Origin: a virus
DNA length: 45,075 nt
IMG/VR virus record: IMGVR_UViG_3300045988_034500
Strand: one strand, 5' to 3'
The position numbers and the translations under genes were made by a program. Numbering within the stretch: position 1 is the stretch's first letter; the number at the start of each line of letters is the position of its first letter. The notes below the pieces were generated by a model that saw only the letters and a program-made list of their open reading frames with translations, did no database searches and was not told where the DNA came from. Shown in pieces: positions 2,179-45,075 of the stretch.

Positions 2179-2432
2179 TGGAAGAGCTGACCCTACAACG
2201 AATCAAGCTACTGAAAGAACGTGTTAATCGTTATAGTAATGATCCTACGAAGATTCCGCAAGATGAGAGACGAGAACTCTCGCTGATGTTCGCTGTAGCT
2301 TTCAAGGACTTTAAGGACTTCTGTGAGATTGGTATGCGATTCCTTGGCTTCGGTATTACCGAGATGCAGTTGAGCATCGCAGAGTACGTCCAGAATGGCC
2401 CTAAGAAGAGAATGGTCCAAGCACAGAGAGGT
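2178..2432 (+). CDS. terL: large terminase subunit, exon 1 (N-terminal ATPase region up to the Walker A motif)
   Basis: The protein ends ...NGPKKRMVQAQRG, which aligns to T7 gp19 ...NGDNKKFILQAFRG immediately before the GIGKS Walker A motif. The open frame stops at TAG 2433-2435. Confidence 0.7.
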
Positions 2433-2662
2433 TAGTCTAAGGCTGAGCCTCGTAATCTCGTGAATACGGGGGAACTCTCGTAAGAGACAATCCCGTGCCA
2501 AGACTCGAAAGAGTAAGGTGTAACGACTATCCTATATGGAGTAGGGGCAAGTGTCCCGAAGCGCGAGACTCCGCATGTCGGAGAAGATATAGTCTGATCT
2601 TGTAGGCGACTACAAGCTGTCGAAAGACGGGGGAGGATTAACGACCCTCCCTGAACACAATG
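2433..2662 (+). mobile_element. group I intron (ORF-less, about 230 nt) interrupting terL at the Walker A motif
   Basis: Exon 1 ends in U (2432), which can form the U:G pair with G2448, and GAGG pairs with CCUC at 2449-2452 (P1). The intron ends in G2662. A gap-free alignment to T7 gp19 ([15 protein letters not shown] versus RG+EAKTTITALYAVW) places the 3' splice site here. The core region 2490-2545 is about 75 percent identical to the nrdD intron at 20143-20198. Confidence 0.65.
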
Positions 2663-5026: not shown

Positions 5027-5201
5027 AGGTAGTACGATAAGCGATCTAGTAAGGCACATCGTAGAACTACGAGAGAGCGTAGATGAATGTAATAATCGTA
5101 TGTCTACGATAGATAAGAGCCTAGATGAGTACGATAGAAGGTATAACAGAGATACTGAGATTAGCGGGGATGTGAATAGCGGGTATGTGAGTACTAAGTA
5201 A
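4863..5201 (+). CDS. o-spanin (Rz1-like outer-membrane lipoprotein), overlapping the i-spanin gene in the +1 frame
   Basis: Signal peptide MFSKLRRVMLGLSIALLLTSC with an LTSC lipobox. An alternative TTG start lies at 4857. Confidence 0.6.
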   Translation: MFSKLRRVMLGLSIALLLTSCVTVQEGSTAQRVHTPVRTVVPTTLTMQCKEPSLKGSTISDLVRHIVELRESVDECNNRMSTIDKSLDEYDRRYNRDTEISGDVNSGYVSTK

Positions 5202-5307
5202 CACCTAAATTTGGTATACTAACGCGAGAGGGTATCTCCCATTACACCAAGCGATTATCCCCCATATACCCCTAGTGCACTATTACCATCATCATGTTGA
5301 ACATCAT

Positions 5308-5666
5308 GTAGTTCACCTAGAGTATACCCTAGTACATCATCAGTACACTTAGTTGTAGTAGTAGTACACCTAGAGTACTACTGTGTGGTATATACTAGGT
5401 ATGCCTAGAGAGTAGAGTGTACTTGTGGGGATATATCTCTTTATCCCTATGTATATCTCTTTTGTCTACATAGGTATCTGTAGTACACCATTAGTATACT
5501 GCTAGAGATCTATCTCTTGTATTCATTAGTATATCTATGTATCTATCTATATTACGTCCAGCAGTATACTGTTATATATCTATAGTAGTTCACCTATAGT
5601 GTATATTAGTACATCCATCATTGTACTCTTAATAGTACATACTGTAGTACACCTATGTATACTACT
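5308..5666. repeat. array of five approximately 20-bp direct repeats GTAGTwCACCTAkAGTrTAc in an AT-rich non-coding region
   Basis: Copies at 5308-5327, 5361-5381, 5480-5500, 5585-5606 and 5644-5666, with interspersed hairpins carrying TATCTCTTT loops (5427-5449 and 5446-5489). Confidence 0.7.
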
Positions 5667-6316
5667 AAGTATACTATACATTGTTCTACTGTAGTTCTAT
5701 ATCTATCTATATATAAAGATATCCTGCTTGCGATGTATAGCCTCAGCGTTGTATCTCATGATTACATCTCATCATTACATCGCATGATTCTATGGCATAT
5801 CCTATGAGGTATCGTCCAGTGGTATCTTGTTTTGTCCATCATTATCCTCCGCCATGGGTTTCTCTTTATGGGCGTTCCCCTCCTTTCAGTCGGGTCGGGC
5901 TATCCGCTTCGGCTTCCTCGTCTATCACTAAGTTCGACTAATCGTCTCTGTGTCTCTTAGGAGCCACAGATACGATAAGTCTCACTAAGCTCTCTCCTCG
6001 GCGATCCTCCGCTACTATCCCTAACGCAGTACCCGCACTCGCAGGCTACCTATGAACATCCTATGCGCCTCTCTTACGCTCTCTATAGGTACTTGCCGCT
6101 CCGCCACGCTTCGTATCCCTCTAGACTATGACAGGCTGCTCGATAATCGCACCGTCCTCGCTACGCGAGGGGTGGTTGCTACGCACCCTCCCCTCGCTAC
6201 GAGTCCGATTTTAGCGATTATCTCCCATCCTGTCAAGTCTATACATCGTTTGTGGTCGCTCCGCTGTGGACGCTCAGGATGGTAGGATTTTGCCTACCTA
6301 GGGGAAATCCCTACAG

Positions 6317-6347
6317 TTTACACAGGCAGCCGAATCTGTGCTATACT
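6317..6347 (+). promoter_or_regulatory. candidate sigma70-type early promoter (TTTACA, 19-nt spacer, TATACT)
   Basis: -35-like box at 6317-6322 and -10-like box at 6342-6347, about 25 nt upstream of the GGAGG RBS of the first early gene. Confidence 0.3.
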
Positions 6348-6372
6348 TTATCCATCTTTTGGAGGAATCATC

Positions 6373-6462
6373 ATGATTGAGATGATCGCCAGAGGCGTAT
6401 GCCTCGCCCTCGCCGCCCTGTTCGTCTGGGCATGTTGTTACTTTGTTTACGCCATTGCTTAA
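6373..6462 (+). CDS. small hydrophobic peptide (29 aa, MIEMIARGVCLALAALFVWACCYFVYAIA) coupled to the downstream polymerase-like gene
   Basis: GGAGG RBS 7 nt upstream. Its stop lies inside the RBS of the next gene. Not in the ORF track because of its size. Confidence 0.35.
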   Translation: MIEMIARGVCLALAALFVWACCYFVYAIA

Positions 6463-6473
6463 GGAGTATCATT

Positions 6474-8030
6474 ATGGCTACGTCTAAGATTATCGCTCAC
6501 GTCAGTGCCCGTATGGAAGAGCTTAAGGCTCGCACCCTTGCCAGTCTCCAGAAGGCAGGTCGCCCTCGGGTAGTAGCCCAGACGATATTCATCGCCGCCG
6601 CCCGTGCCTGTGGTCTGCAGGCTACCCGTAACATCGTTGGCGACCTTACGGCAGTAAAGCCGCTCGTCCGTGCCATGGTTGCTGACGGCTCCCTTGTCTT
6701 CCATCACGTGGAGGGCGGGACTAGCTATTACACGATCCCGTCGGTTGACGGCATGACGGGTAACACTGCCCATACTCCGGGTAACGCCTCCTTTGAAGTC
6801 GATCCCCGTCACATCGGGGAGGACTGTCTGCACTTGCAGGCAGGGAAACTGATCGCCTCCCGCGTCTGGCGTGTCAACGTCCGCAGGCTTGAAGAAGCGC
6901 GAGACCGTAATGCTAACGGTTACGTGTTCAATGATTTCAAGTGGGAAAAAGCCCCGGCTGAGGACGATGCCGCATTTATCGCACAAAGGCAGCAGATTGC
7001 CGCTATTTCTGCTATCGTTGATAGCATCGGTGTCAACGTAGCGTTTGATGCTTTCTGTGATGACCGCGGACGTTTCTATGTCCGTGGGGGCTATACTAGC
7101 CCGTATATGGGCAAGTTGGGTCGTTGGCTCTACACCGCTGACGACGAGGTGACATTAGACCATAGGACGTCATTCGCCCAGAACTTCGCCCTGCTGACTG
7201 GCGATGCTATGGGGCAACACTGCGGTGTTGGTACCGCAGAGGATTGCGATTTCTGGCGTGGTCTCCTTGCCCCGTATGGCGTTAACATCGCCCCGCACAG
7301 CCTGCATAGGGATGCGTGCAAAAGCTACGGGATGCCCCTTTTTTATGGGGCAGGTCAGAGCCTTGCCGCTGAACGTCGTAATGCACTGCTAAAGCAGGCA
7401 GTATCGGCAGGGGAGATCGCCCAGACACAAGCCGACGCCATCGCCGAAGCCCTCGACAAAGTGGGCGAGAAGCTCAAAGGATTTCAGGAGCTGACGCGCT
7501 CCTTCGCGCAGTCCTTCGTGGACTGGGGCGAGGATCCCTCGTGGATTACGCCCAGTGGCTTCAAAGCCTGCAAGAAGTACCGCACGCATAAAACGCTTGT
7601 GTGGAACTCGGGCGAAAACGATTCCACTTGGGCATACCCCAAATCTATGACCCTTAAGGTCAAAACAGGTACAATCTGCACTCAGCCAAAGGACGAGTCC
7701 GACAAGTCCGTTCTTGTGGCAACGACTGCGAACATCCTGCAGTCGTTGGACGCCGCCCTGATGGCTAAGGTTATTGTGTCCTTTAAGCAGGAAACGGGGG
7801 TTACCCTGTTTCCCCTGCATGACTCCTACACCGTGCCAAAGGAGCTTGCCCCCGCACTTACAGCCTGCGTTATTCAGGCAATGCGAGAGCTTGCCGACTC
7901 CGACGAGATGAAGGCGCTCCGCCGTGAACTTAACCTCCCGCCTGTGAAGGTGATCACGGGGAAGGCTCGACCCTCCGACCAGATGCGAAACCTCGACCTT
8001 CGAGCGATGAACCCGCTCGACGAGGAATAA
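6474..8030 (+). CDS. truncated single-subunit RNAP homologue (518 aa; thumb, palm and fingers only; lacks the N-terminal promoter-binding domain)
   Basis: AAGGAG RBS. T7 RNAP motifs are intact: VAFDAFCDD (motif A; T7 LAFDGSCSG), HRDACKSYGMPLFYGAG (motif B RxxxKxxxxxxxYG; T7 RSVTKRSVMTLAYGS), PSWITPSGF (T7 HWVTPDGF), NILQSLDAALM (T7 NFVHSQDGSHL), LHDSY (motif C; T7 IHDSF). Clearly higher GC than the rest of the phage. An intrinsic terminator follows. Confidence 0.7.
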   Translation: MATSKIIAHVSARMEELKARTLASLQKAGRPRVVAQTIFIAAARACGLQATRNIVGDLTAVKPLVRAMVADGSLVFHHVEGGTSYYTIPSVDGMTGNTAHTPGNASFEVDPRHIGEDCLHLQAGKLIASRVWRVNVRRLEEARDRNANGYVFNDFKWEKAPAEDDAAFIAQRQQIAAISAIVDSIGVNVAFDAFCDDRGRFYVRGGYTSPYMGKLGRWLYTADDEVTLDHRTSFAQNFALLTGDAMGQHCGVGTAEDCDFWRGLLAPYGVNIAPHSLHRDACKSYGMPLFYGAGQSLAAERRNALLKQAVSAGEIAQTQADAIAEALDKVGEKLKGFQELTRSFAQSFVDWGEDPSWITPSGFKACKKYRTHKTLVWNSGENDSTWAYPKSMTLKVKTGTICTQPKDESDKSVLVATTANILQSLDAALMAKVIVSFKQETGVTLFPLHDSYTVPKELAPALTACVIQAMRELADSDEMKALRRELNLPPVKVITGKARPSDQMRNLDLRAMNPLDEE

Positions 8031-8065
8031 AAATTCCATAGGGGCGCTGCCCCTTGAATCCCCTA

Positions 8066-8095
8066 GCCCCTGCCAATCGGCGGGGGCTTTTTCTT
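8066..8095 (+). terminator. intrinsic terminator (GC-rich stem CCCCTGCC/GGCGGGGG followed by CTTTTTCTT)
   Basis: Read directly, 36 nt after the stop of 6474..8030. Confidence 0.55.
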
Positions 8096-8150
8096 GCTCC
8101 GGAGTTCCATAGAACCGATATCACAAAAGAATCAGGTGATAAAAAGAAAT

Positions 8151-8174
8151 TCGCTCGCTCGCTTCGCTCGCTCG
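8151..8174. repeat. (TCGC)n-like microsatellite with flanking GC-rich hairpins (8184-8200, 8208-8226, 8253-8269)
   Basis: TCGCTCGCTCGCTTCGCTCGCTCG read directly. Confidence 0.6.
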
Positions 8175-8531
8175 ATCTATAGTGGCACGCTTCGCGTGCC
8201 CCTCTTAAACTCGGGGGCGCTCCGCTCCCCCGAACCCCCTCGAAGGAAGGGGCATGCTGCCCCTCCCTCGCCCTCCCCTGCTCACGTTCCGTCGCTGTAC
8301 TGTACTCACAACGTTAAACTTATGAATAGGACAGAGGGGCTGTACTGCTAAACAGAGATCGTACCTAAGCTCGTCATGAATCCTCGACTTTCATCAGATT
8401 GATGATACAAGACATCTCCAATAAACTGTTGAAGAGCATTAGCTACGAAAGTCAAGGCTCCATGACTCTTATGAATCAAAGACCTACTAGCTTTGCAGAG
8501 CATGAGGAAACTCATGCGCTGCGGACTACGA

Positions 8532-8640
8532 CAGTGCCTAAAGATTCAGGAGTGTACTCATTCCAAAGCACTACACAGTGCCTAAAGAAAAAGGATAGTA
8601 CTACGCCGAGGCAAGGAGTGCCTAAAGTTAGAGGACTGTA
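8532..8640. repeat. three imperfect direct repeats (core CAGTGCCTAAAG plus about 17 nt) with a 40-44 bp period
   Basis: Copies start at 8532, 8576 and 8616. The period is not a multiple of 3, so this is a DNA-level signal and not a protein repeat. Confidence 0.6.
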
Positions 8641-8865
8641 GACACTCCGACGCTGATACTCGCCCTTCAGGCGAGTAAGGGGCCGTTCCACGCCCCTTTC
8701 AATCCCCTTGGCCTATCGCACGCGAGAGCTGTACTGCTTAACAGCGGTAAACTTACGCAAAGGGCTTGCCCTTCAAAAGGCAACGCCGTAACCAAGGCCA
8801 AGACTTAGGGTGTACTCTAAGGCGTAATCTTCATTTACAACATCTACCCTTACCAAGAGGACAAC

Positions 8866-9291
8866 ATGTACAAACTCACCGACAACATGTATGAACGCGT
8901 CAAGGCAACGTATGGTGAAGCCGTCGCCAACGGCATCAACGACGCCCTTCGAAACCCCGAAGGAATCGAAGACGAAGACAACGCCTTCGTAACCGTCAGC
9001 GTTCATCTCGACTGTAATGACAAGATTGCGTGTCTTGACTCAGCAATCTTCCTCCTTAAAAAGGAAGACGAGGTAACAGACCTCAAGCCTCCTCGAATGC
9101 TGGATTGGTACACCCCCAAGGATATCTTCATGGGCCACCTTGAAGAGAAGACTGTCGTCTTCTTACACAAGGATGGCAGCAGCTACCTCGGCAAGGTGGA
9201 CTGCGTTGACTATGAAAATGAGAGCATTCATCTTGAAAACGATGCGTGGTATTGGATGCCGAATATAACCAAGATCATGGTTCTCATGTGA
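8866..9291 (+). CDS. hypothetical early protein
   Basis: 141-aa ORF with an AGAGGA RBS. Confidence 0.5.
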   Translation: MYKLTDNMYERVKATYGEAVANGINDALRNPEGIEDEDNAFVTVSVHLDCNDKIACLDSAIFLLKKEDEVTDLKPPRMLDWYTPKDIFMGHLEEKTVVFLHKDGSSYLGKVDCVDYENESIHLENDAWYWMPNITKIMVLM

Positions 9292-9306: not shown

Positions 9307-9381
9307 CTGCAGGTAGCTCAACGGATAGAGCATAGGTCTTCTAAACCTACGATAGGGGTTCAATTCCCCTCCTGCGGTCCA
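9307..9381 (+). tRNA. tRNA-Arg (anticodon TCT), CCA encoded
   Basis: Folded by hand: 7-bp acceptor stem with one G-U pair; D-stem GCTC/GAGC with an 8-nt loop; anticodon stem TAGGT/ACCTA with loop CTTCTAA; 4-nt variable loop; T-stem AGGGG/CCCCT with loop TTCAATT; discriminator T then CCA. Confidence 0.8.
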
Positions 9382-18047: not shown

Positions 18048-20088
18048 GGTAATTAAGAAAGACGGCACTGTCGAACCGTTCGATATGGAAAAAATCTTCA
18101 AGGCTATCGACAAGGCCAGCCAACGTGCTAACTGCAACATCCGTAGAGGCGACCATGAGCTTCTGGAGTCGTACATCACTTTTGAATGCGAGTCCAAGGG
18201 CAAGGACATTCCTACGTCTGAGATGCACAGCATCGTAATCAAGGCGCTGTATGCTTGTGACTACAAGGCTATTGGTGACGCATACAAGGAGTTCAGAGAT
18301 TACAAGAACACGTATGCCAAGGCCTTTGAAAAGGTGAAGGATGATGCGGACACTGTTCTTCTTCTCGGAGACAGGGAGAATGCTAACTTTGATTCTTCGC
18401 TTATCAGTACGAAGGGTTCGCTCATCAAGGGGTACCTCACGAAGGAACTGTACAAGCAGTTCTATCTGAACAAGGAAGAACTCCAAGCTACGAAGGAAGG
18501 CACGATCTATATCCATGATCTTCGAGACATGATTTTCAACAGCATCAACTGCTGTCTGTTCGACATGGGTAATGTCCTCAAGGGTGGATTCAGCATGTCC
18601 AATGTGGACTACACTGAACCTACTAGCGTGCTCAGTGCGCTTCAGGTTATCGGTGACATCACGCTCGTCGCTACTGCACAGCAGTTCGGTGGGTTCACCA
18701 TTCCGAGTATTGATAAGACGCTTCTCCCGTATGCCAGAAAGACTTACAATAACGCCTTCAAGAAATACTTCGATACTTGTAATCTGGAGTATGACGAAGC
18801 AGACTCCATGGCTCTTGGTGACCTCAAGCGCGAACTTGAACAGGGCTTCCAGTCTCTTGAACTGAAGCTCAACACTGTGCCGTGTTCCAGAGGTGACTTC
18901 GCCTTTACCACTCTTACGTTCGGTGAATGGAGCAATGACCTCCCTGATCTCGACAAGGAAATCCTCCAGATGGTGTGTGAAACCATCCTTGAGATTCGCA
19001 TGAAGGGGCATGGTCCGAAGGGTAAGCAGGTTGTGTTTCCCAAGCTCGTGTATCTCTATGACTGGGAACAGCACAGTGGTGCTGAACATGCTGAGGTGTT
19101 CGACAAGGCTGTTGAATGCTCTAGCAAGTGCATGTACCCTGACTACCTTGCAATCAACTCTGACTATGGCTCGGTATCTGAAACCTACCGAGCATCGAAC
19201 AAGCAGTGCGTGATTCATCCGATGGGTTGCAGGGCGTACCTCACGCCTTGGTACGACATTGAAACCAATGAATACGTGTCTGTTGGCCGATGCAACATCG
19301 GCGCTGTGTCTCTGAATCTTCCTCTTATCTACAAGAAGGATCCTGAGAAGTTCTATGAGAACCTCACTGAGAACCTTGAACTTATTCGTAAGTTCTTCCA
19401 GAAGAGATATGAAGCAGTTGCTGAAACGAAGGCATGCACGAACCCCATGGCATTCTGTCAGGGTGGATTCTACAAGGGGAATCTCAATCCTGATGATAAG
19501 ATCGGTGATCTTACGCAGTACATGACTGCTAGTTTTGGTGTTACCGCCCTCTCAGAATTTGTTGAACTTCATGGTCTGAAGCTGAACTCTGCTCTTGGTA
19601 GAGACCTTGCCATCAAGGTTGTTGACTTCATCAATAAGAAGATCAATGAGTTCAAGAAGGAGGATGGGCACCTGTATGCTCTTTACGGTACTCCTGCAGA
19701 GTCCCTGTGTGGTACTCAGATGCAGCAGTATCATGACTATTGCAAAGCACACGGAGTTAAAGATGAATTCGAAGGAAGAAACTACTTCACGAACTCGTTC
19801 CACATCCATGTCGCAGAAGACATCTCGCCCGTCGAGAAACAGACGTGGGAATTCCCTCTGTTCCATAAGGTTCAGGGTGGGCACATCCAGTACATCAGAA
19901 TTGATAACCCTGAGAATCTGAAGGCCGTTAAGGCTCTGATTATCAGGGGCATGTACAACGGTTTCTATCAAGGTGTGAACTTTGATGCTGCAGTTTGTGA
20001 AGACTGTGGCGAGCACTCCACTAATGTAGGCAAGCACTGCCCGCATTGTGGTTCCAACAACATCTCTGTCATCAGTCGTGTCTGTGGG
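18040..20088 (+). CDS. nrdD: anaerobic ribonucleotide reductase NrdD, exon 1 (ATP cone, core, Zn ribbon, RVCG of the glycyl-radical motif); exact 3' end uncertain by about 3 nt
   Basis: ATG at 18040 with an AAGGAG RBS and an ATP-cone start MIKVIKKDGTVEPFDMEKIF. Zn ribbon CEDCGEHSTNVGKHCPHCGS, then SRVCG, then an in-frame stop, so the conserved Tyr and C-terminal tail are missing from this exon. Confidence 0.8.
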
Positions 20089-20719
20089 TTAACTTAATGG
20101 CTCACGTTAAATTCTCCCTAAACGGGGAACATCCAGAACGGACAATCCCGTGCTAACCCGTGTGACTACGGAAATGTGTAACGACTATATAGGAGAACTA
20201 TGTTAAAAGAAATTCCAGACTATCCAAGCTACTACGCCGATGAACTCGGCAACATCTATGGTACTAAGAACCAAAAGAAAATGTATAGGCTAACGCCCTA
20301 CAGTAAGTTAGGATACTTGCGTGTCAGAATGCGACTGAATGGTCGCTGTGTAGACAAGTCTGTTGCTTACTTAGTCGCTAGAGCGTTCGTAAGTGGATAC
20401 AAGGAAGATCTAGAAGTCAACCATATAAACAAGATCAGAGACGACAATCGTCCTGAAAACCTTGAATGGATGACTCACAAGGAGAACGCAAGATACTCCT
20501 TGTGCAGGAAACTCAAAGTAACTACAAAGGCAGGTACAGTGCTGTACTATGACTCTTGTGGTAACTTCTCTAGAGATACAGGTATTGCTACCAATAATCT
20601 CGCTAGATGGTATATGCAAAAGAATAATGGCTATATCAAGAAGTTTGAGTTGACTGTCGAATACATAGAAGAGATAGTCTGAACTGCATAGGAATATGCA
20701 GATTAACAAAATTGATCTT
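20089..20719 (+). mobile_element. group I intron in nrdD carrying an HNH homing endonuclease ORF (boundaries approximate)
   Basis: The 5' segment TAACTTAATGGCT...ACGGGGAAC...GACAATCCCGTGCTAA...GTGTAACGACTATATAGGAG parallels the terL intron (TAGTCTAAGGCT...ACGGGGGAAC...GACAATCCCGTGCCAA...GTGTAACGACTATCCTATATGGAG). The 3' segment GAAGAGATAGTCTGA...TGATCTTG parallels terL intron 2583-2602. The intron interrupts the RVCG|Y glycyl-radical motif. Confidence 0.65.
20200..20682 (+). CDS. HNH homing endonuclease (intron-encoded)
   Basis: TAGGAG RBS. HNH motif EVNHINKIRDDNRPENLEWMTHKEN. Located inside the nrdD intron. Confidence 0.75.
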   Translation: MLKEIPDYPSYYADELGNIYGTKNQKKMYRLTPYSKLGYLRVRMRLNGRCVDKSVAYLVARAFVSGYKEDLEVNHINKIRDDNRPENLEWMTHKENARYSLCRKLKVTTKAGTVLYYDSCGNFSRDTGIATNNLARWYMQKNNGYIKKFELTVEYIEEIV

Positions 20720-22988: not shown

Positions 22989-23275
22989 TGCGTAAGAAGA
23001 TTCATAAGTTCCCTAGTAAATTGCTTAACCAATTGCACTACAAAGATCAGGTTATTACTGATGAGTATTACCTTCAGTACATTATGAATGAAAGGGTGGA
23101 TGATGAAGCCTCTGGAGAGCACCACTGGTACTACCTGTTCAAAGATGTACAAGAAGACAAGTTCTACCTTGCAACGTATTTTGAACACAATGATATCTCT
23201 GGGTTCTTCCCCATTGATGAGAAGGGCATGGTTGAATGTCGTAATGTAAGTATTATTGGTATCTTAAAGGGTTGA
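22988..23275 (+). CDS. hypothetical protein
   Basis: 95-aa ORF with ATG/stop overlaps on both sides. Confidence 0.45.
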   Translation: MRKKIHKFPSKLLNQLHYKDQVITDEYYLQYIMNERVDDEASGEHHWYYLFKDVQEDKFYLATYFEHNDISGFFPIDEKGMVECRNVSIIGILKG

Positions 23276-23277
23276 TT

Positions 23278-23727
23278 ATGCTTTATAAAGATGTGCCTTA
23301 TGAAGGCGAAGAAGATTATTACGGTGATGAGCCGTATGACGAGGTGTACGATGAGGTATACGGTAATGACCCGTATGTTACCTCTGATGAACTCAAGAAG
23401 AGCCTGAATGCGTATTCCAAGACTGCAAAGTCTTTCGATCTTCTGGACATTGCTCCTGCGATCCCGTTTGTCCTTGGTAACATCATCAAGTACACGCTTA
23501 GGGCACCGCACAAGGGTCAGAAGGAGTCTGATATGGCTAAGGCTAAGGACTACTACTTTACCATGGTTGACAACTACGAGGTTTACGTGGCGTGTCAGGT
23601 GTGGTATAATGAACATCCTGATGCCATGCGCCTCATCCGAAAGCTCTATGGTGACGAACTGTTTGCTGACATTGATTCTGCAGACTGTACCCTGAGTGTT
23701 TTCTGTGACCATGTGCTAGCGCTTTAA
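23278..23727 (+). CDS. hypothetical protein with an acidic Tyr-rich N-terminus
   Basis: ATG at 23278 with an AAAGGG RBS. The track begins at TTG 23272. Confidence 0.45.
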   Translation: MLYKDVPYEGEEDYYGDEPYDEVYDEVYGNDPYVTSDELKKSLNAYSKTAKSFDLLDIAPAIPFVLGNIIKYTLRAPHKGQKESDMAKAKDYYFTMVDNYEVYVACQVWYNEHPDAMRLIRKLYGDELFADIDSADCTLSVFCDHVLAL

Positions 23728-23749
23728 TCTTAAAACATAAGGAGAACTG

Positions 23750-26176
23750 ATGACGGAATGTCCTGATTATACCGATGAAGAACTTGAGAAAGAAGCTCAA
23801 TACGAACGTAGATTCTACCAAGAAGGCTTGGCTAGAGCGTACCAACAGATGAAGGAGGCCGTCGATAACGGTAGGCTTCCTGATGTAGGGGTTGGTAAGA
23901 AGATCATCAATAGGTCTTTTGCTACGTTGGTTGAGGATCTTACGGAAGCAGCTAAGCCCTGTCGAGGTGTGGGTGCAAAGTACAGCGCCCATATCCGTAA
24001 GCTAGGGATTGAAGCATCCATGATGATTGGTTTGAGAATCATCCTTTCCAACGGCAGTTCTCCTGAACCGCGACACAGAACTGTTCAGTGCATCTTGGGA
24101 CGTATTGGTATGGCTATTGAGACGGAATTGCTCGCTCGTAAATTCGAGGAGATCAATCCGTACTACAATGCTCGTATCGCTTCTCAGGTTAAGGAACAGT
24201 GCGTACATGACGTGCGTACCATCAGAGCCAAGTACCTCACTGGCTATAAGGATCTTAGTATTAACTATGAACCTTGGACTGAGCAAGAGAGGCTGGGTAC
24301 TGCAAAGGTAGTAATGCAAACTATCTGGAAGGCGGGTCTCTTCACAATCACAAACGGTAGTCGTCGTGCTCCTTCTCTGGTTGAACTCTCTGATGAAGTG
24401 AAGATGTTCATCCAGAACAACTACGACCACATCCATCCAGTGATCCAGTTCCCCGTGATGCTCATCAAGCCCCTTCCGTGGAGAGGGATGTACAATGGTG
24501 GGTACATTATCCCTGAGCTGAGGAATCACTGCCCGATGATGAAACTCCACGCTATGCCTAGAGACCTCCGTAAATGGGTAACAGAGCGCGTAGGAGGCGT
24601 CGAGGACGCTCAGGTAAGGGAAGGTATGACCAAGGCTCAGGAAGTCCCGTATCGCGTTAATACGCGCGTCCTAGAGGTTGCTAGGAAGGCGTTCGCCTCT
24701 CCCAAGGGATTGCTTGGGCTTCCTCCCCATGGTCCACAGCCTCAACCGCCCTTCCCCTTCCCTGAAGGGTGGAATAAGGACTCCGCTACAAAGGATGAGC
24801 TTGAGTTGTTCACGAAGTGGAAGCTCGAAATGAAGAGCTGGTACACGTATGAGAACACTCGACTGGGTAAGAAGAGCGGATTGAATGGTAGGCTCAGGTA
24901 CCTGAATGAACTCAAGGATGAGCCAAGGTGGTACTGTCCTGCGTTCATTGATTGGCGTGGTAGGGTGTACTTCAGAAGCACGATCAATCCCCAGAGTGCT
25001 GACGTAATCAAGGGGTGTATTGATTTTGCAGAGGGTAAGGAGTTAGGTGCAGAAGGATTGTACTGGCTGAAGGTTCACGTAGCCAACTGCTGTGGGTACG
25101 ACAAGAAGAACTTTGATCTCAGAGTTCAGTGGGTCGACGAACATTGGGAGGAAATTAAAGCATTCCTTCACGATCCATTGAATGTTGATCCTCCAGAGAA
25201 GGACACTGCCTTCACGCTCCTGCAAGCAGGATGGGACTTAGAGAGCGCTCTAGCGCTTCCTGACCCAACCAAGCATATCTCCCATACCCCAGTGGCTATG
25301 GACGCCACCTGCAGTGGCCTACAGCACTACAGCGCTATGCTGAGAGATGAGGTAGGCGGGTACTACACGAACCTCGTCAAGAGTGATTCTGATGAGAAGC
25401 ACGACATCTACAAGGCTGTTGCTGAGAAGGCTATGGAGTTCCTTCCTGAAGTTACCGATGATGCGTTCATCATCAAGTGGTGGAAGGACAAGGGGATTCC
25501 TAGGTCTATGGCTAAGCGTCCTGTGATGACATACGTGTACAGTGCTACGCTTAGAAGCTGTATTGATTACGTAACGGAGGAGCTAGTCGAGGAAGGTGTT
25601 GAGATTCCCAGTGGCTATAGCTACATCAGTCTTAGCACTCCTATTGGCAAGGCTCTTAGAAAAGCCGTTGAAGCTACTGTTCCCAAAGCCAAGGAAGGTA
25701 TGGATGCTCTTAAGGAGCTAGTTAAGTCCCAAGACGATGCAATTAGATGGATAACTCCAGTAGGTGTTCCTGTTGTTAACTACAAGGACAGCTACCATAT
25801 GAAGTTAGTGCGTCTTAGCTGTATGGGTTTAACGAATATCTCTTATGGCTTTAGTGGTTCAGAGTACAATCGTATGAAAGCTATCAACGGTATTAGTCCG
25901 AACTTCATTCACTCGATGGATAGTTCACATTTGATTAAGGTGGTTAATGCTTTTAACGGTCGTATCCTTTGTATCCATGACAGCTTTGGTACTCACGCTT
26001 GTGATGTACCTGTTCTTCGAACTGAACTGCTCAGACAATTTGTGGATCTGTACGCACATTACGATGCCAAGGACCATTTCGTATTGTCTGCAGAGAATCG
26101 AACAGAGGTACAACTCCCTCCTCATGGGACATTGTCTCTAGAGGAGGTACTGGAATCGGAGTTCGCATTCTGCTAA
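23750..26176 (+). CDS. T7-like single-subunit DNA-dependent RNA polymerase (808 aa)
   Basis: PVAMDATCSGLQHYSAMLRDEVGG (motif A), RSMAKRPVMTYVY (motif B), IHDSFGTHA (motif C), C-terminus ESEFAFC (T7 ESDFAFA). Confidence 0.9.
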   Translation: MTECPDYTDEELEKEAQYERRFYQEGLARAYQQMKEAVDNGRLPDVGVGKKIINRSFATLVEDLTEAAKPCRGVGAKYSAHIRKLGIEASMMIGLRIILSNGSSPEPRHRTVQCILGRIGMAIETELLARKFEEINPYYNARIASQVKEQCVHDVRTIRAKYLTGYKDLSINYEPWTEQERLGTAKVVMQTIWKAGLFTITNGSRRAPSLVELSDEVKMFIQNNYDHIHPVIQFPVMLIKPLPWRGMYNGGYIIPELRNHCPMMKLHAMPRDLRKWVTERVGGVEDAQVREGMTKAQEVPYRVNTRVLEVARKAFASPKGLLGLPPHGPQPQPPFPFPEGWNKDSATKDELELFTKWKLEMKSWYTYENTRLGKKSGLNGRLRYLNELKDEPRWYCPAFIDWRGRVYFRSTINPQSADVIKGCIDFAEGKELGAEGLYWLKVHVANCCGYDKKNFDLRVQWVDEHWEEIKAFLHDPLNVDPPEKDTAFTLLQAGWDLESALALPDPTKHISHTPVAMDATCSGLQHYSAMLRDEVGGYYTNLVKSDSDEKHDIYKAVAEKAMEFLPEVTDDAFIIKWWKDKGIPRSMAKRPVMTYVYSATLRSCIDYVTEELVEEGVEIPSGYSYISLSTPIGKALRKAVEATVPKAKEGMDALKELVKSQDDAIRWITPVGVPVVNYKDSYHMKLVRLSCMGLTNISYGFSGSEYNRMKAINGISPNFIHSMDSSHLIKVVNAFNGRILCIHDSFGTHACDVPVLRTELLRQFVDLYAHYDAKDHFVLSAENRTEVQLPPHGTLSLEEVLESEFAFC

Positions 26177-26191
26177 GTTCGCATTCTGCTA
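26160..26191. repeat. perfect 16-bp tandem duplication AGTTCGCATTCTGCTA x2 spanning the RNAP stop codon
   Basis: Read directly at 26160-26175 and 26176-26191. Confidence 0.8.
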
Positions 26192-26220
26192 GTATCCTAA
26201 TGTTACTATGTAGGGTCTAA

Positions 26221-26315
26221 TAAAGAACTTTTATAGTACGTATAGATGTAATATACTAATGTATATTGTATGTACTCTAGTATATACATATATTACGTAC
26301 TATATTAGTTCTTTA
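26221..26315. repeat. approximately 25-bp imperfect inverted repeat (TAAAGAACTTTTATAGTACGTATA / TATTACGTACTATATTAGTTCTTTA) with a 46-nt spacer in a very AT-rich region; two ACTCTAGTATA motifs (26270-26286, 26321-26338)
   Basis: The reverse complement of the left arm matches the right arm with 2-3 mismatches. Confidence 0.65.
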
Positions 26316-26364
26316 TATAATACACTCTAGTATACTATATCCTCGTTTGCTACAAGGTTATGAG

Positions 26365-26592
26365 ATGAGTAATAATAAAACTACTGTTAAAACTCTACAA
26401 ACTACTACTGTTGGTAAAGTAGTATGGCTACCTCTACACGTCAAAGAACTCGATAAAGTTTTTCCTGAAGACACTAGTAATGACAAGTACGGTGTGATGT
26501 GCTATCGTAATGGGCAACGCTCAGTCATTAAGTACATCGAGCAACAGGTAAAGAAGATGCTCAAGGATGATACTAATGGTATCCCTCGATGA
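26365..26592 (+). CDS. hypothetical protein
   Basis: ATG at 26365 (MSNNKTTVKT...). The track starts at TTG 26347. Confidence 0.4.
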   Translation: MSNNKTTVKTLQTTTVGKVVWLPLHVKELDKVFPEDTSNDKYGVMCYRNGQRSVIKYIEQQVKKMLKDDTNGIPR

Positions 26593-26995
26593 GTATCACT
26601 ATGAGGTACCAAACATCAATATCTTGCGTAATGTGATTGAAGCACACGCTGAAGACTACCCGATGTACCAAGGTGATAAGGTACCTTGGAGTCAGTGGTT
26701 GACTCTTTCTGCTGTGTGTGCTTCTAATTATGTTCTTGTAGGTACTGATGATGAAGGTAAGCAAGCGTTTGCGATCTTCGACATAGGCTATGATCCTCAT
26801 GTTGTTGGTTCTGTCTTGACTATGCAGATGACTGTAAGCAACAGTCCTAAAGCTATGTCTGCGATTACAAAGCGCTTGCTAAGAATTGCGTACAACTGCG
26901 GTTGCTCGTACATCTGGATGACTAGAAGGACAGGTGCATACAGCTACTCAGGTACGTTTCATAAACTTAGAGAAAAATCTAATGGGATTTTTTAA
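26576..26995 (+). CDS. hypothetical protein
   Basis: ATG at 26576 with an AAGGA RBS. 139 aa. Confidence 0.45.
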   Translation: MVSLDEYHYEVPNINILRNVIEAHAEDYPMYQGDKVPWSQWLTLSAVCASNYVLVGTDDEGKQAFAIFDIGYDPHVVGSVLTMQMTVSNSPKAMSAITKRLLRIAYNCGCSYIWMTRRTGAYSYSGTFHKLREKSNGIF

Positions 26996-27254
26996 AGACT
27001 TGATTACCTTTGGTGGGTACAGCCAGTCTAAGGCTACGGCTAAGGCGGCTCAGGATCAGGCTAGACAGCAGGAAGAGCTGTATAACCAACAGCTCAAGGA
27101 GCAGCAGGAAGCCGCTATTCTCAAGGGTGACGAAATGGCAGAAGCCGTTGCTACTATCAATACTGGTGGCGGTGGTTCTTATGCGGATGATCCGTTCGCT
27201 AAGAGAAAGAAGCGTTTTAATTTCGGATCCAGTGATTCGTTGGGGATTATGTAA
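26982..27254 (+). CDS. small Gly-rich basic protein (90 aa), paralogue of the next gene; possible small virion or ejection protein
   Basis: MGFFKDL...GGGGSYADDPFAKRKKRFNFGSSDSLGIM. Position is equivalent to T7 gp6.7/7.3, upstream of the portal. Confidence 0.4.
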   Translation: MGFFKDLITFGGYSQSKATAKAAQDQARQQEELYNQQLKEQQEAAILKGDEMAEAVATINTGGGGSYADDPFAKRKKRFNFGSSDSLGIM

Positions 27255-34901: not shown

Positions 34902-37900
34902 ATGATTGAACAGAAATTTGCAAGTGCAGGTGGTGCTTCGTTTGTTAATCCTTATCATGGGACGAGCGATCAACTGTACACGCCTACGGATTACAGCGAA
35001 GTAGCTCAGAACTTGGGAAAGCTCTTTAGCACTACGTATAAGCAAATCCAAGACAATGCCTTTAGACAGGGGCAGATTGATCAGATGGCTAACGCTGTGG
35101 ATACTGATCGTTGGCTCGGTAAGGATCAGTATCTCAAGGGAGCCAAGTACGCAAAGGCTCAGATTGATCTACAGACTGTCATTGGTAAAGCACAAGACAT
35201 TGTGAACACAGCCATTGCTAATGGCAAGGGCAGTGAAGAGATGCTGGAAGAGATCAGGAAATCTCAAGAAGGTCTCTTTAATGTTGCTACTGAGCTTAGG
35301 GGTACGAATCCTTCTGCGGCTGATAATCTGATTAACCAACTTAATAATGTTCAGGGTGCGGCTGTAAAGAACCATGCTGAGCAGATGGTTGCTAAGACTA
35401 ATGAGTACCGTATGAACGGTGACTACATGAGCGTTAATTCGTTTCTTAGTAACTCTGCTGAGTCTGCTAGGCTTAGCAATCAGGGATTTATCCTTGATGA
35501 AGAAGCTACGTACAAGGGTCTGAAAGCCCAGATCAATGCTCTTGACACCAATGCTACGGTAATGGGAGTTGATAAACTCGAGTATCGTAGTCAGATTCTT
35601 GGTGGGTCTTTCAAGAACATGCTCACTAATGCCAAGATGGATTCTCCAGAGGCTGTGGGTCTTGTGAACAGTATGGCTCGCACCATGGATAGCCTCGTTA
35701 AGGATGGGTACATTGATCCTAAGACGAGTCTTGGCATCAAGGTGTTTGCTGAGAATAAGCTCGGGGAGGCTAGACAATACTACATTGCTCAGGCTAGTAT
35801 TGTAGCTAATAATCCTGAAATGGTGTACACTCCTGAACTGGAACATCAGTTCAGTGGTATGCTTACCACAATGAAGGCTATGGGTGTTGAACCTATGACG
35901 CTTGCTAGTCTCCTGAATGGTTTTAGTACAAAGAAGGCTAAGTTCTTGAAGGCTGATGGTAATGCCAAGGCTTCTGGTATGGCACCTCTTGCAGGAAGTC
36001 CCGGTAGTGAGTCTTGGCGTAAGGGCCTCGCTCAAGAAGTTCTTAAACAACATAAAGCTATTGCAGCACAGACAGGTACTACTGTCAGTCCGCAAGAGGT
36101 TTCAAAAGACATCATTACACAGATGTGTCAGTACTCTGACTTCAAAGGTTCACACAAATACATTGAGGGGCTTGCCACTACTCTTACCAACGGTATGAGT
36201 GCCTCTGGTGACTTCTTCAGTGACAATGTGGCTCATACCGCCATGGTTCTGAATGGACTCATTAATTCTGATGATCCTAACATCAGAATGACTGTAAGAG
36301 ATCATCTTGGTCCGAAGCTCAGTATCTTCTTGGATCAACAGCTTATCCCTGCAATTCAAGCAGCCAGTGCTGCTGCAGGTGATAAGAAGCCAGAAGTCAT
36401 CAAGGAGATTAACAACAAGCTCCATGAGGCTTGGAGTAATCTCAACAGCGGTAGTACGTACAAGCTCGGTGATAACATTACCGAGGACACTAAGATCGCT
36501 CATTGGTTGGGTGAAGGTGTAGCTAATAAGTACACGTTCTTTGGCTATGGCTTTGGTGGTCTTGGCTTCAATGAGGGACTTGCTCAGGTTCTTGCTCCTA
36601 CCATGAAGGCATATACGCCTAACATCACTTCCATGCTTCAGAGCGCAGGTACTACGCTTATGGAAGGTAAGGAGCTTGAGACGCTTCAGGCTGTCGGTGT
36701 TGTACAGTCTCTGAATGACGGCTACACGATGATCTCTCCTAATGGTAATGCACCCATCTTTGCTATTCTTGGTAGTGATGGTAATACCACTAGAGAGTTC
36801 ATTCCTGAAGTTCTTCAGAGTACCCTTACTGAGCTTGCCAAGAGGCAGAACATTGGTCTTGGTGATGTTACTAGTACGTTCGGTAATAGTGACGTTGCAC
36901 TGTTCCTGAATCCTGATACTGGTGGACTTGAACAGGTGTTTGAGCCTGCTGATTCTGGTATGCCTGCTAGACACAGGTACACCAACAGGGAGGTGCTTGA
37001 TCTCTATGATAAGCTCAAGGACGATTACGTTGCTCAGAAGCAGGAGGCTGCTAGTTCTAAGATCGTGTCTGCTGAGGATCTCAGATCTAGGATTACGGAG
37101 TTCGAGGATAGTGACTTCTTGGATCCTGAAAGTGTAGAGAACATCAAATCCAGTGGTAACATCATGGATGTTGGCAAGGGTGAGTTCGTGTTCGTTACTG
37201 ATCCCGATAAACTTCAGAGCCAGTACAGAGAGGTTAGTAATAACTTTGTGAATATCGGCGAGGCTCTTAAGACTGCATGGGATGCTTCCAGAGAGAGCAT
37301 CGGTGAATCTTATGATAGTCTCGATATTGACGCTCTTGCTAAGGGTGCAGAGGATAAGTTCGTTGGTGCTTCCAAGACTATTCAGTCTATTGGTGCAGAC
37401 ATCAAGAACTCTGACATCCCTGCTGAGGTTAAGCAGAAAGCTACTGATATTTGGGATTGGATTACTAATCCCGAAAACACAGCTCAAGTGCAAGACTTGC
37501 TCGCTGAGGCTAATGAGAACACTGTCGATGCCATTAAGCTCGTAATGAGCAAGGCAGGTGATTACCTCAAGGAGAAGTTCAAAGCTCCTGAGTTGAACCT
37601 TGCTATGGATGCGTACAACGCTCTTCAGGGTGCTGAGGATGGTTTGTCGTTCATTGGACAGCATATCTTGAACAGAGTGCGTCATGGGTTCTATGGTCCC
37701 AATGGCAAATACTATCCGCCTCTGAATCAGAGGGATGCTGATGTCATTGAGAGATTCATGGCTAATCCAGAGGGTGTAGGTCCTCTGTATGCCAATACCC
37801 TTGGCAATATCTATCGTAGATATGCTGTGGATGCTATTGGCTTATTCGAGAATTTGATGGATATTTCAAATAAGAACGTTACGCCTGTTAAGGTGAGTAA

Positions 37901-38468
37901 TGGTAAGAACGGCTTTGAAACGTTCTACACCACGGGAGCCATGTCTGGCTCTGTGTTTGGTCAGGCTCTTGGCAATATCGTTATGTCCGAGCTTGCCAAG
38001 GAAGAAGGCATGCTCCTGAATTGGACTGCTACTAATCCGAAGGTTACAAAAGACCCTGTGATCGGTATTGGTTACAAGCGAGGTTACCCTGCTTGGGATA
38101 AGCGCTTTGAAGCCGCTGAGGGTGATGCTATCGCTCTTAGTAGAGTTACGTGTGAGTTCGCTACTTGGTACTTCAACAACATTCCGACCAAGTTCTCTAA
38201 GGCTACGGGTACGGATTGGGAAAGGGCTACGACTAATCCTATGCTGTTGCCTGTGATCGTTGCGACTACTGACTACTCTTGGCACGCAGGACGCAATGCC
38301 AATGGGTACTACGAAGCCCTTGAGCTTGTGAAGCAGAATAAACTTGATGCGGCTATGGATCGACTCAAGGCATCTGCCCCGTACAAGCAGAGTGGCTTTG
38401 GTAGAAAGATGAAACTTGAACACGGTCTCAGGGCGTACTACAAGTTCTGGCACGAGACTGAACACTAA
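34902..38468 (+). CDS. internal virion (ejectosome) protein (gp15-like)
   Basis: 1188 aa. Position in the structural module. Confidence 0.6.
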   Translation: MIEQKFASAGGASFVNPYHGTSDQLYTPTDYSEVAQNLGKLFSTTYKQIQDNAFRQGQIDQMANAVDTDRWLGKDQYLKGAKYAKAQIDLQTVIGKAQDIVNTAIANGKGSEEMLEEIRKSQEGLFNVATELRGTNPSAADNLINQLNNVQGAAVKNHAEQMVAKTNEYRMNGDYMSVNSFLSNSAESARLSNQGFILDEEATYKGLKAQINALDTNATVMGVDKLEYRSQILGGSFKNMLTNAKMDSPEAVGLVNSMARTMDSLVKDGYIDPKTSLGIKVFAENKLGEARQYYIAQASIVANNPEMVYTPELEHQFSGMLTTMKAMGVEPMTLASLLNGFSTKKAKFLKADGNAKASGMAPLAGSPGSESWRKGLAQEVLKQHKAIAAQTGTTVSPQEVSKDIITQMCQYSDFKGSHKYIEGLATTLTNGMSASGDFFSDNVAHTAMVLNGLINSDDPNIRMTVRDHLGPKLSIFLDQQLIPAIQAASAAAGDKKPEVIKEINNKLHEAWSNLNSGSTYKLGDNITEDTKIAHWLGEGVANKYTFFGYGFGGLGFNEGLAQVLAPTMKAYTPNITSMLQSAGTTLMEGKELETLQAVGVVQSLNDGYTMISPNGNAPIFAILGSDGNTTREFIPEVLQSTLTELAKRQNIGLGDVTSTFGNSDVALFLNPDTGGLEQVFEPADSGMPARHRYTNREVLDLYDKLKDDYVAQKQEAASSKIVSAEDLRSRITEFEDSDFLDPESVENIKSSGNIMDVGKGEFVFVTDPDKLQSQYREVSNNFVNIGEALKTAWDASRESIGESYDSLDIDALAKGAEDKFVGASKTIQSIGADIKNSDIPAEVKQKATDIWDWITNPENTAQVQDLLAEANENTVDAIKLVMSKAGDYLKEKFKAPELNLAMDAYNALQGAEDGLSFIGQHILNRVRHGFYGPNGKYYPPLNQRDADVIERFMANPEGVGPLYANTLGNIYRRYAVDAIGLFENLMDISNKNVTPVKVSNGKNGFETFYTTGAMSGSVFGQALGNIVMSELAKEEGMLLNWTATNPKVTKDPVIGIGYKRGYPAWDKRFEAAEGDAIALSRVTCEFATWYFNNIPTKFSKATGTDWERATTNPMLLPVIVATTDYSWHAGRNANGYYEALELVKQNKLDAAMDRLKASAPYKQSGFGRKMKLEHGLRAYYKFWHETEH

Positions 38469-44808: not shown

Positions 44809-45075
44809 ATGCTGAACAAGGAGCTTCTATTGGCTACAGAGAGTCAAATAGCAGGGCATATTAAGCTAACGGTCGGAGAATACTATGGCACTTTTGGGTA
44901 CTTTGAAGCCCGGGCAGGTTCTATAAATAGAATCCCAACATGGAACAAAGGAGAGAACCCTATTAAAATGCTTTCGCTACTTACTGATCCCGAAGGGCAT
45001 AACACTATTATGGATTTTTACCGACAGGTAAAAGTAAATGCTGATAGTATAACAATGACTGTTGTTGAAAAAAAG
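44809..45075 (+). CDS. hypothetical protein, 5' part (continues as 2..211 across the circular junction; full length about 131 aa)
   Basis: GGGAGG RBS 7 nt upstream of the ATG at 44809. Open to the window end. Confidence 0.55.
   Translation, partial: MLNKELLLATESQIAGHIKLTVGEYYGTFGYFEARAGSINRIPTWNKGENPIKMLSLLTDPEGHNTIMDFYRQVKVNADSITMTVVEKK

Follow-up and report, generated by a model that had tools for sequence, protein, structure and literature searches.

Short and additional polymerases in the T7 family

Phage N4 encodes a minimal T7-like RNA polymerase (RNAP), RNAPII, of 673 amino acids (aa) with a truncated N-terminal domain and thumb (PMC4496689). Another departure from the T7 plan was described in 2025 in the marine Autographiviridae groups AG-10.1 and AG-14, which carry an additional RNAP of ~650 aa. 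In AG-10.1, small unknown genes surround the additional one, which is encoded upstream of the typical RNAP; a different set of genes was suggested as the target of the extra RNAPs (PMC12361551). Here, we describe a 518-aa polymerase that is encoded together with a canonical RNAP in the virus record IMGVR_UViG_3300045988_034500 of IMG/VR. The whole stretch of DNA that was analysed, 45,075 nucleotides (nt) long, is referred to as the window. An initial annotation of the window had regarded such a polymerase as having no obvious precedent, a view that N4 RNAPII and the extra RNAPs of marine Autographiviridae overturn. The two polymerase genes are:

6474-8030, + strand: miniature polymerase gene, the coding sequence of a 518-aa single-subunit RNA polymerase
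23750-26176, + strand: canonical 808-aa RNA polymerase, matching PHROG 414 at E 1e-217, ending in FAFC and lying just upstream of the structural genes (phiKMV-type position)

The second of these was already recognised as a normal RNAP in the initial annotation, and the PHROG match bears this out.

Like the miniature polymerase, N4 RNAPII (gp15, 269 aa, and gp16, 404 aa; PDB 6dt7) has a truncated N-terminal domain and thumb. It is an early product and serves as the intermediate-stage transcriptase in a phage with more than one polymerase. The wording of motifs A and B is nearer to gp16 than to T7 (DATSSGLQILACLTGD and RNDCK versus LDHRTSFAQNFALLTGD and RDACK), and scores for kinship with N4 reach marginal similarity (PHROG 2051, E 2.7e-5; hhalign, E 0.0076 to gp16 and 0.063 to gp15). 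In contrast to the 673-aa heterodimer of N4, the miniature polymerase is a single 518-aa chain, so that one open reading frame (ORF) covers both N4 parts: DxxGR, which in N4 belongs to gp15, and motifs A-C, which belong to gp16. It also occurs in a 45-kb Autographiviridae-like phage, apparently lacking a virion RNAP, rather than in a Schitovirus, and has F and Q at two positions where gp16 has G (DATSSGLQ) and H.

With T7 RNAP (gene 1, 883 aa), the miniature polymerase shares the fold, the catalytic motifs and a beta-hairpin at the place of the specificity loop. T7 gene 1 is an early-region gene transcribed by the host polymerase, and the miniature gene is likened to it as a probable early, host-transcribed gene. 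However, the miniature polymerase is 365 residues shorter and coexists with a canonical RNAP. It ends in MNPLDEE with no FAFA-type tail, the replacement that the initial annotation had noticed, and the terminal Glu is conserved family-wide.

The AG-10.1 and AG-14 groups, compared here by description only, resemble the window in having a second, shorter, divergent RNAP beside the typical one of ~800 aa. Their extra RNAP is ~650 aa long, whereas members of the present family have 480-590 aa; moreover, in the window the typical RNAP follows the DNA-metabolism genes, as in phiKMV, and the small one comes first after the presumed genome end. Foldseek searches (UniProt/BFVD) also matched short RNAPs of phiEcoM-GJ1 (648 aa), Vibrio phiV141 (673 aa) and Shewanella SppYZU05 (527 aa) at E 1e-8 to 1e-11. 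These are at most 14% identical, some may be fragments or split genes, and none falls within the subfamily. What appears to be new is a distinct single-chain subfamily of ~500 aa, encoded as a self-contained early unit at a fixed position, with an invariant F/Q pocket and an acidic C-terminus. No description of it was found in the literature, which is incompletely searchable. The phage clade is uncultured, and its large RNAP shares no more than 43% identity with the counterpart in any cultured phage, the closest being an Acinetobacter Friunavirus.

A reduced member of the single-subunit RNA polymerase family

On sequence evidence, the 518-aa protein is a member of the T7 single-subunit RNA polymerase family. 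The initial annotation had proposed a reduced T7 RNAP homologue at 6474-8030, and the ORF proved to be intact and conserved, with Pfam, PHROG, hhalign and AlphaFold2 (AF2) in agreement. The protein passes the family threshold of Pfam PF00940 (RNA_pol; 25.1 bits against a cut-off of 22) and matches PHROG 414 'RNA polymerase' at E 7e-16. Searched singly with phmmer against PDB sequences it gave no match, and only a profile of 33 family members reached mitochondrial RNAP (mtRNAP) and T7 RNAP there. With hhalign, run against a small profile built from T7 RNAP, the 808-aa enzyme and three other sequences, residues 8-514 aligned to T7 145-877 (Prob 99.1, E 1.9e-18). The AF2 model made with the family alignment is confident and compact (pLDDT 90.8, pTM 0.86), and 413-436 of its 518 residues superpose on mtRNAP, N4 and T7 RNAPs. 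Its right-hand fold is nearer to single-subunit RNAPs than to family A DNA polymerases (436 versus ~300 aligned residues). At 518 aa (family ~480-590), the protein would rank among the smallest complete single-chain enzymes in the T7 family, smaller than the 673 aa of N4 RNAPII.

The protein retains thumb, palm and fingers, together with a hairpin resembling the specificity loop and all four of the catalytic motifs. Their positions are:

7059-7073, + strand: DxxGR motif, D196-D-R-G-R200, equivalent to T7 D421-R425 (hhalign)
7155-7181, + strand: motif A, L228-DHRTSFAQ-236, with the catalytic Asp D229 equivalent to T7 D537 (hhalign)
7308-7349, + strand: motif B (O-helix), with R279, K283, M287, Y291 and G292 equivalent to T7 R627, K631, M635, Y639 and G640 (hhalign, hmmsearch), all invariant
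7581-7676, + strand: long beta-hairpin, residues 370-401, at the position of the T7 specificity loop (AF2 strands 370-378 and 391-401)
7728-7751, + strand: A419-NILQSLD-426, equivalent to T7 P780-NFVHSQD-787 (hhalign), with Q423 at T7 H784
7815-7829, + strand: motif C, L448-HDSY-452, with the second catalytic Asp D450 equivalent to T7 D812 and H449 to H811

The hairpin is bounded by WITPSGF (357-363), which corresponds to T7 WVTPDGF (727-733), and by ANILQSLD (419-426; T7 780-787), in which N420, Q423 and D426 take the places of T7 N781, H784 and D787. Within motif A, F234 sits at the position of T7 G542. The initial annotation had aligned motif B, WITPSGF and H449-D450 with T7 correctly, placing K283 on K631 and D450 on D812, but had mistaken D192 of an 'AFD' sequence for D537. 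D192 lies four residues before DxxGR, and the real motif A Asp is D229.

These residues are strongly conserved. D196, R198, G199 and R200 are invariant in alignments A1 and A4, as is H449, and D450 is nearly invariant (one N in 17); the other catalytic residues do not vary among 33 sequences down to 37% identity or 17 sequences down to 25% identity. Across the wide family, the invariant set comprises DxxGR; D229, S233, F234 and Q236; R279, K283, M287, Y291 and G292; N420, Q423, S424 and D426; H449; and the C-terminal Glu. The 518-aa polymerase is thus very probably an active enzyme, as far as conservation of its residues can tell.

Compared with T7, the losses comprise about three quarters of the N-terminal domain, the palm insertion (426-536) and the FAFA tail. 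The segment from DxxGR to motif A has 29 residues against 112 in T7, and that from motif A to motif B has 50 against 90. The N-terminal portion divides into two regions:

6474-6758, + strand: residues 1-95, a winged-helix-like N-terminal domain of helices plus a beta-hairpin at 75-87 (AF2 model)
6759-7043, + strand: residues 96-190, a linker plus thumb-like helices, the most variable segment with the lowest identity

A full N-terminal promoter-binding domain (RPOL_N, PF14700) was not found. In the profile alignment T7 1-144 is without counterpart and T7 145-300 is aligned loosely; at low confidence, hhalign sets the hairpin at 74-88 opposite T7 226-246, the region of the intercalating hairpin. 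Further along, residues 131-143 (VWRVNVRRLEEAR) align to T7 327-339 (AWKINKKVLAVAN). In the model, residues 1-95 could plausibly be a stripped-down remnant of the promoter-binding domain, and the hairpin at 370-401 may have a promoter-reading role. The domain had been described as missing altogether; the ~95-aa remnant and the specificity-loop-like hairpin contradict this, and the proposed check for a fold in the first ~190 aa turned up a winged-helix-like domain at 1-95, followed by helices of the thumb type already included in the original reading. The miniature polymerase shows which parts of the T7 architecture are dispensable, and so compact a scaffold could suit orthogonal expression systems.

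An uncharacterised subfamily under purifying selection

As delimited by homology searches, the protein is one of an uncharacterised subfamily whose members have about 480-590 aa and are found on Autographiviridae-like contigs of 45-47 kb. A word-indexed search returned 73 clusters (497-528 aa, 38-92% identity), mostly on contigs of 45-47 kb. An exhaustive phmmer search of 1.84 billion cluster representatives returned 28 matches, of which ~21 are family members (479-588 aa, down to 25% identity), and canonical RNAPs of ~800 aa appeared in it only at E ~1e-5. Altogether, the ORF is intact in more than 100 database members of constant length. One of these in nr, DAQ74808.1, is entitled 'MAG TPA: DNA directed RNA polymerase [Caudoviricetes sp.]', while the JGI call for the window gene is a 505-aa hypothetical protein. 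IMG/VR holds only three near-identical loci. Among 50,697 phage records, tblastn of the 518-aa protein gave no match at E 1e-3, and megablast of 6000-8600 and 23000-27000 gave none either. There is no relative in the GTDB genomes, which therefore provide no host or prophage clue.

The ratio of non-synonymous to synonymous substitution (dN/dS) is 0.10-0.14 against two 90%-identical alleles (dS 0.67-0.94), and is low in all three domains. Base composition also sets the gene apart. Its GC content is 0.568 (0.64 at third codon positions, GC3), compared with 0.469 for the genome and 0.457-0.497 for five other genes, a difference that had been taken as a sign of foreign origin. The difference is real, but an excess of 7-15 points over the replication genes is found in every relative down to 30% identity, which argues for a stable, old property of the gene and against a recent import or island.

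Transcription signals and genome context

The gene is flanked by signals for its own expression:

6319-6347, + strand: candidate sigma70-type promoter, TACACA, a 17-nt spacer and the extended -10 element TGcTATACT (consensus scan; putative function)
6373-6462, + strand: hydrophobic micro-ORF of 29 aa, MIEMIARGVCLALAALFVWACCYFVYAIA (translation)
6461-6466, + strand: Shine-Dalgarno sequence AAGGAG, 7 nt 5' of the ATG at 6474
8065-8098, + strand: intrinsic terminator, a 10-bp GC-rich stem AGCCCCTGCC/GGCGGGGGCT followed by TTTTTCTT (scan; hairpin at 8065-8088 plus T-run)

The candidate promoter lies ~25 nt upstream of the micro-ORF. A sigma70-type element is aligned with it in three relatives (L004, L005 and L001), reading TTGACG-18-TGcTATACT in L005 and TTGACA-17-TGtTATGAT in L001 (alignment A2). 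A GC hairpin with a T-run lies 3' of the polymerase stop codon in nine of 11 relatives. Because promoter and terminator are conserved, the predicted host promoter, the small polymerase and the predicted host terminator are called a conserved module, one that stands alone in most of the relatives examined. The GGAG of the polymerase ribosome-binding site (RBS) is unchanged across five aligned relatives. The micro-ORF is preceded by a GGAGGA of its own (6362-6367) and ends with a stop codon that overlaps the RBS of the polymerase. It is kept in L004 and absent from L005, L002 and L001, and is therefore no core part of the polymerase unit. Thus, the RBS, micro-ORF and terminator of the initial annotation are all present, the micro-ORF only in the closest relatives. 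A longer in-frame start at 6399 was rejected: it has no RBS, and the N-termini of homologues, which align at MxxSKII, do not support it.

The window is a circular assembly of a genome of ~44,990 bp, positions 1-85 being equal to 44991-45075. It has a phiKMV-type Autographiviridae layout, with primase, helicase, family A DNA polymerase, exonuclease, NrdD/NrdG, ThyA and the 808-aa RNAP, then portal, scaffold and capsid. Spanin-like genes, which by their nesting and sequence seem to be of Rz/Rz1 type, end at 5201, and gene order suggests that the small polymerase is the first sizeable gene after the presumed genome end. Its earlier description as the first early gene, injected first, agrees with this early-end position and with the gene having its own promoter, but the order of entry is deduced from gene order in an assembly that is circular.

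In relatives at 63, 57, 46, 40, 38 and ~30% identity the order is constant: the terminase and lysis genes come first, then 0.5-1.5 kb without coding sequence, the small polymerase, a further non-coding stretch, the small early genes and finally primase, helicase and DNA polymerase. This placement is seen in L001, L002, L004, L005, L010, L013 and L016; in L016, a 588-aa member is followed by small genes including a SAM lyase, a classical T3-type early gene. A search of related phages for the same island, which the initial annotation had proposed, thus found the gene at the same position, as a clade-wide feature and not as an island in one phage. Co-occurrence with an RNAP of ~800 aa was checked in one distant relative, the 46,191-nt contig ERZ27291702:k141_10890, which encodes a 560-aa family member and an 819-aa RNAP. 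The two-polymerase state therefore reaches a relative at ~30% (small) and 48% (large) identity. A gene for a FolD-like methylene-THF dehydrogenase/cyclohydrolase lies just 3' of the small polymerase, among the early genes, in L001 (7924-8715), L010 (13356-14201) and L013 (5597-6397).

A proposed two-polymerase cascade

We read the miniature polymerase as a functional, extremely reduced single-subunit RNAP that is made early from host transcription and takes over middle transcription in a two-polymerase cascade, a reading to which we give roughly even credence. The presumed activity, templates, promoters, timing and division of labour would be as follows. After DNA entry, host RNAP would transcribe essentially only the small-polymerase unit and halt at its terminator. 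The miniature polymerase would then start at phage promoters in the non-coding DNA around its own gene and transcribe the early and middle (DNA-metabolism) genes rightwards, including the 808-aa RNAP gene; this transcription may also help to draw the genome into the cell. Finally, the 808-aa enzyme would transcribe the late genes. The logic would be comparable to that of N4, where the virion RNAP (vRNAP) precedes RNAPII, and to that of T7 gene 1. Consistent with it are the conservation of promoter and terminator, the T7 gene 1 and N4 RNAPII precedents, and the fact that a simple scan gave no sigma70-like sites between the terminator and the next genes. If correct, the clade would represent uncultured Autographiviridae-like phages with a conserved two-polymerase programme, in which the early unit is apparently the small polymerase alone. 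This bears on how the hand-over of transcription from host to phage evolved: a phage may follow the T7 arrangement, that of phiKMV, or the two together.

Several observations weigh against this cascade. The sigma70 scan was a crude consensus scan. Most of the T7 domain for promoter melting and recognition is gone, and by analogy with N4 RNAPII the enzyme may need a cofactor or single-stranded or primed templates. No ssDNA-binding cofactor of gp1 or gp2 type was recognised, four early ORFs having given no informative PHROG match, in a survey that left out the ~1,200-aa ORFs at 34902-38468 and 38481-42083 and included no remote-homologue search. The residues F234 and Q423 sit at positions of the T7 RNAP pocket that govern selectivity for the 2' position of the nucleotide sugar, so that ordinary RNA synthesis is not guaranteed. 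Furthermore, no genome-wide promoter consensus for either polymerase emerged from repeated k-mers, from pairwise comparison of intergenic 20-mers or from repeats in relatives. The promoter search gave local repeat families only (GTAGTWCACCTAKAGTATAC four times, ACTCTAGTATA twice and GCTGTACTGCTWAACAG twice), and those downstream of the small polymerase are:

8339-8355, + strand: first GCTGTACTGCTWAACAG copy, a candidate phage-polymerase promoter or origin element
8728-8744, + strand: second GCTGTACTGCTWAACAG copy, 122 nt upstream of the next gene (8866)
8531-8642, + strand: three direct repeats with the core AGTGCCTAAAG, iteron-like, spaced 44 and 40 nt (family D8)

The GCTGTACTGCTWAACAG element has three matches, compared with 0.21 expected by chance, and is kept at the same place in L004, L008 and L009 and not in more distant relatives. 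It is, however, identical in a phage whose mini-polymerase is 57% identical and has a different hairpin sequence; that it stays unchanged beside a diverged enzyme argues against it being the cognate promoter.

Alternative roles

The same repeats would suit a role in replication. Here, the enzyme would transcribe only a short part of the non-coding DNA beside its gene and thereby open or prime an origin, as T7 RNAP does at phi1.1A/1.1B and mtRNAP does for mitochondrial DNA (mtDNA); it would be no general transcriptase of the middle genes. In all relatives, a conserved non-coding region of 0.5-1.5 kb flanks the gene on each side. The downstream one holds, in the window, the two copies of the 17-mer and the iteron-like AGTGCCTAAAG array, whose copy number varies from three in the window to four in L004 (2778-2985) and at least seven in L008 (9217-9600). 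The layout recalls T7 gene 1 followed by phi1.1A/B, and a minimal polymerase without promoter-melting elements would suit a specialised role at one structured site. On the other hand, a Toprim primase and a DnaB-like helicase are encoded by the phage itself, different subclades have different families of repeats, and nothing ties the repeats to the enzyme. Origin priming appears unlikely.

Another possibility concerns what the enzyme makes. In T7 RNAP, R425, G542, Y639 and H784 have been randomised to alter the acceptance of 2'-modified nucleotides (PMC9533422). Two of these four 2'-sugar residues differ in the present family, G542 being replaced by F234 and H784 by Q423 in 118 of 118 members. 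By comparison, canonical RNAPs have G at T7 542 in 119 of 120 cases and H at T7 784 in 115 of 115, and N4 gp16 also has G. The other two residues are kept by the family as R200 (T7 R425) and Y291 (T7 Y639). In family A DNA polymerases, the residue five positions after the motif A Asp is the steric-gate Glu (Klenow E710). The miniature polymerase has F234 and not Glu at this position, and it has an RNAP-type hairpin, so that it does not qualify as a family A DNA polymerase.

From these substitutions, sugar selectivity or initiation chemistry may differ from that of T7 RNAP. Taken together with the acidic C-terminus, they could mark a T7-fold enzyme with changed sugar or primer needs that is no ordinary RNA polymerase; at the origin or the genome end, its products might be DNA or mixed primers, and it might also extend primers or use modified nucleotides. 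This seems quite doubtful, as Y291, which favours ribonucleotides (rNTPs), is invariant, as RNAPs are a better match than DNA polymerases in overall fold, in the specificity-loop hairpin and in the spacing of the motifs, and as the phage already has a family A DNA polymerase. If true, it would make the family a natural counterpart of engineered T7 RNAP mutants with altered 2' specificity, on the smallest scaffold of the T7 family. The family-wide swap of two 2'-selectivity residues is in any case a natural experiment relevant to polymerase engineering.

The pattern of allele exchange raises the question of counter-defence or host takeover. For example, L004 and the window share 97% identity along 8.7 kb of replication genes and 92% in the non-coding DNA upstream. 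Their small-polymerase genes, however, do not match at the nucleotide level in the initial 600 nt and are 74% identical thereafter, and the proteins are 57% identical. Domain identities between alleles are mosaic (91/63/89% for P0024; 65/81/93% for P0019). The gene is a hotspot of allele replacement; host-interaction genes are typically variable early genes of this kind, placed at a genome end, and repeated swapping between otherwise near-identical phages points to a role at the phage-host interface. The polymerase might then make decoy or regulatory RNAs, or provide back-up transcription when the host or large phage RNAP is blocked, and would not be an obligatory step. This, too, is rather improbable: the gene is present in every relative examined, and the low dN/dS in all three domains indicates old alleles of conserved function and no rapid diversification. 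Combined with the mosaic identities, it points to old alleles shuffled by recombination rather than to rapid adaptive change.

Finally, an inactive remnant, whether a decayed RNAP fragment or the catalytically dead decoy or inhibitor of RNAP that the initial annotation had considered, is highly improbable despite the lost N-terminal domain, palm insertion and FAFA tail and the very weak similarity to canonical RNAPs, including the failure of tblastn among phage records, since the ORF is intact at constant length throughout the family, DxxGR, motifs A and B and H449 are invariant (D450 nearly so), the AF2 model is confident and compact, and purifying selection, with dN/dS of ~0.1, makes a pseudogene or dead decoy very unlikely.

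In summary of the initial annotation, its observation was mostly right, and its residue assignment, its absent N-terminal domain, its foreign island and its lack of precedent had to be corrected.

Flanking non-coding DNA

The non-coding DNA upstream of the small polymerase has features of its own. An AT-rich stretch at 5300-5720 (+ strand; GC 0.35), at the presumed genome end, holds four GTAGTWCACCTAKAGTATAC copies at 5308-5604, where none is expected by chance, plus other short repeats. TAnAGTrTAC repeats similar to GTAGTWCACCTAKAGTATAC occur in L005 and L002, and a related pair of ACTCTAGTATA lies at 26274 and 26324, just after the 808-aa RNAP gene.

Between this stretch and the small-polymerase unit, 5800-6236 is a non-coding block rich in GC and pyrimidines, in which GC skew and AT skew are reversed. 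Segments of it, for example GGGTCGGGCTATCCGCTT and GCTCCGCTGTGG, do not vary among relatives down to 40% protein identity. On the minus strand, a near-consensus promoter directed leftward into the block reads TTGACA-17-TAAAAT (6236 to 6208), and the block may be a leftward non-coding transcript. When 5800-6210 is folded, the z-score is -3.2 for the minus strand and -2.5 for the plus strand, values that are suggestive only. Rfam searches of both strands of the flanking non-coding DNA found nothing except a tRNA.

The palindrome GCACTCRCAGG, which occurs upstream of and inside the gene in several relatives, was considered as an N4-like hairpin promoter. It was rejected because the in-gene copies encode the conserved peptides LH.QA and HSQA; its count in the window is five against 3.3 expected, not above chance.

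Other features of the window and its relatives

Among the early genes, a tRNA-Arg (anticodon TCT) lies at 9307-9381 (+ strand). Just before it, at 8866-9291 (+ strand), is a 141-aa ORF without a family match, which is absent from the 97%-identical L004 through an indel between 8798 and 9297.

The large terminase gene is split by a group I intron at 2380-2616 (+ strand), which matches Rfam RF00028 with 56.3 bits and so exceeds the gathering score. L005 and L002 are without ~220 nt at this site, where the aligned part of the window breaks off at 2440 and resumes at 2663. A probable second group I intron lies at 20058-20701 (+ strand), just after nrdD (RF00028, 40.1 bits, below the gathering score, E 2e-8). 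It holds an HNH endonuclease ORF at 20200-20682, and a 33-nt stretch of it resembles the first intron. In L002, a reverse transcriptase gene (Pfam RVT_1) at 275-1300 lies upstream of the tail and terminase genes and may belong to a diversity-generating retroelement.

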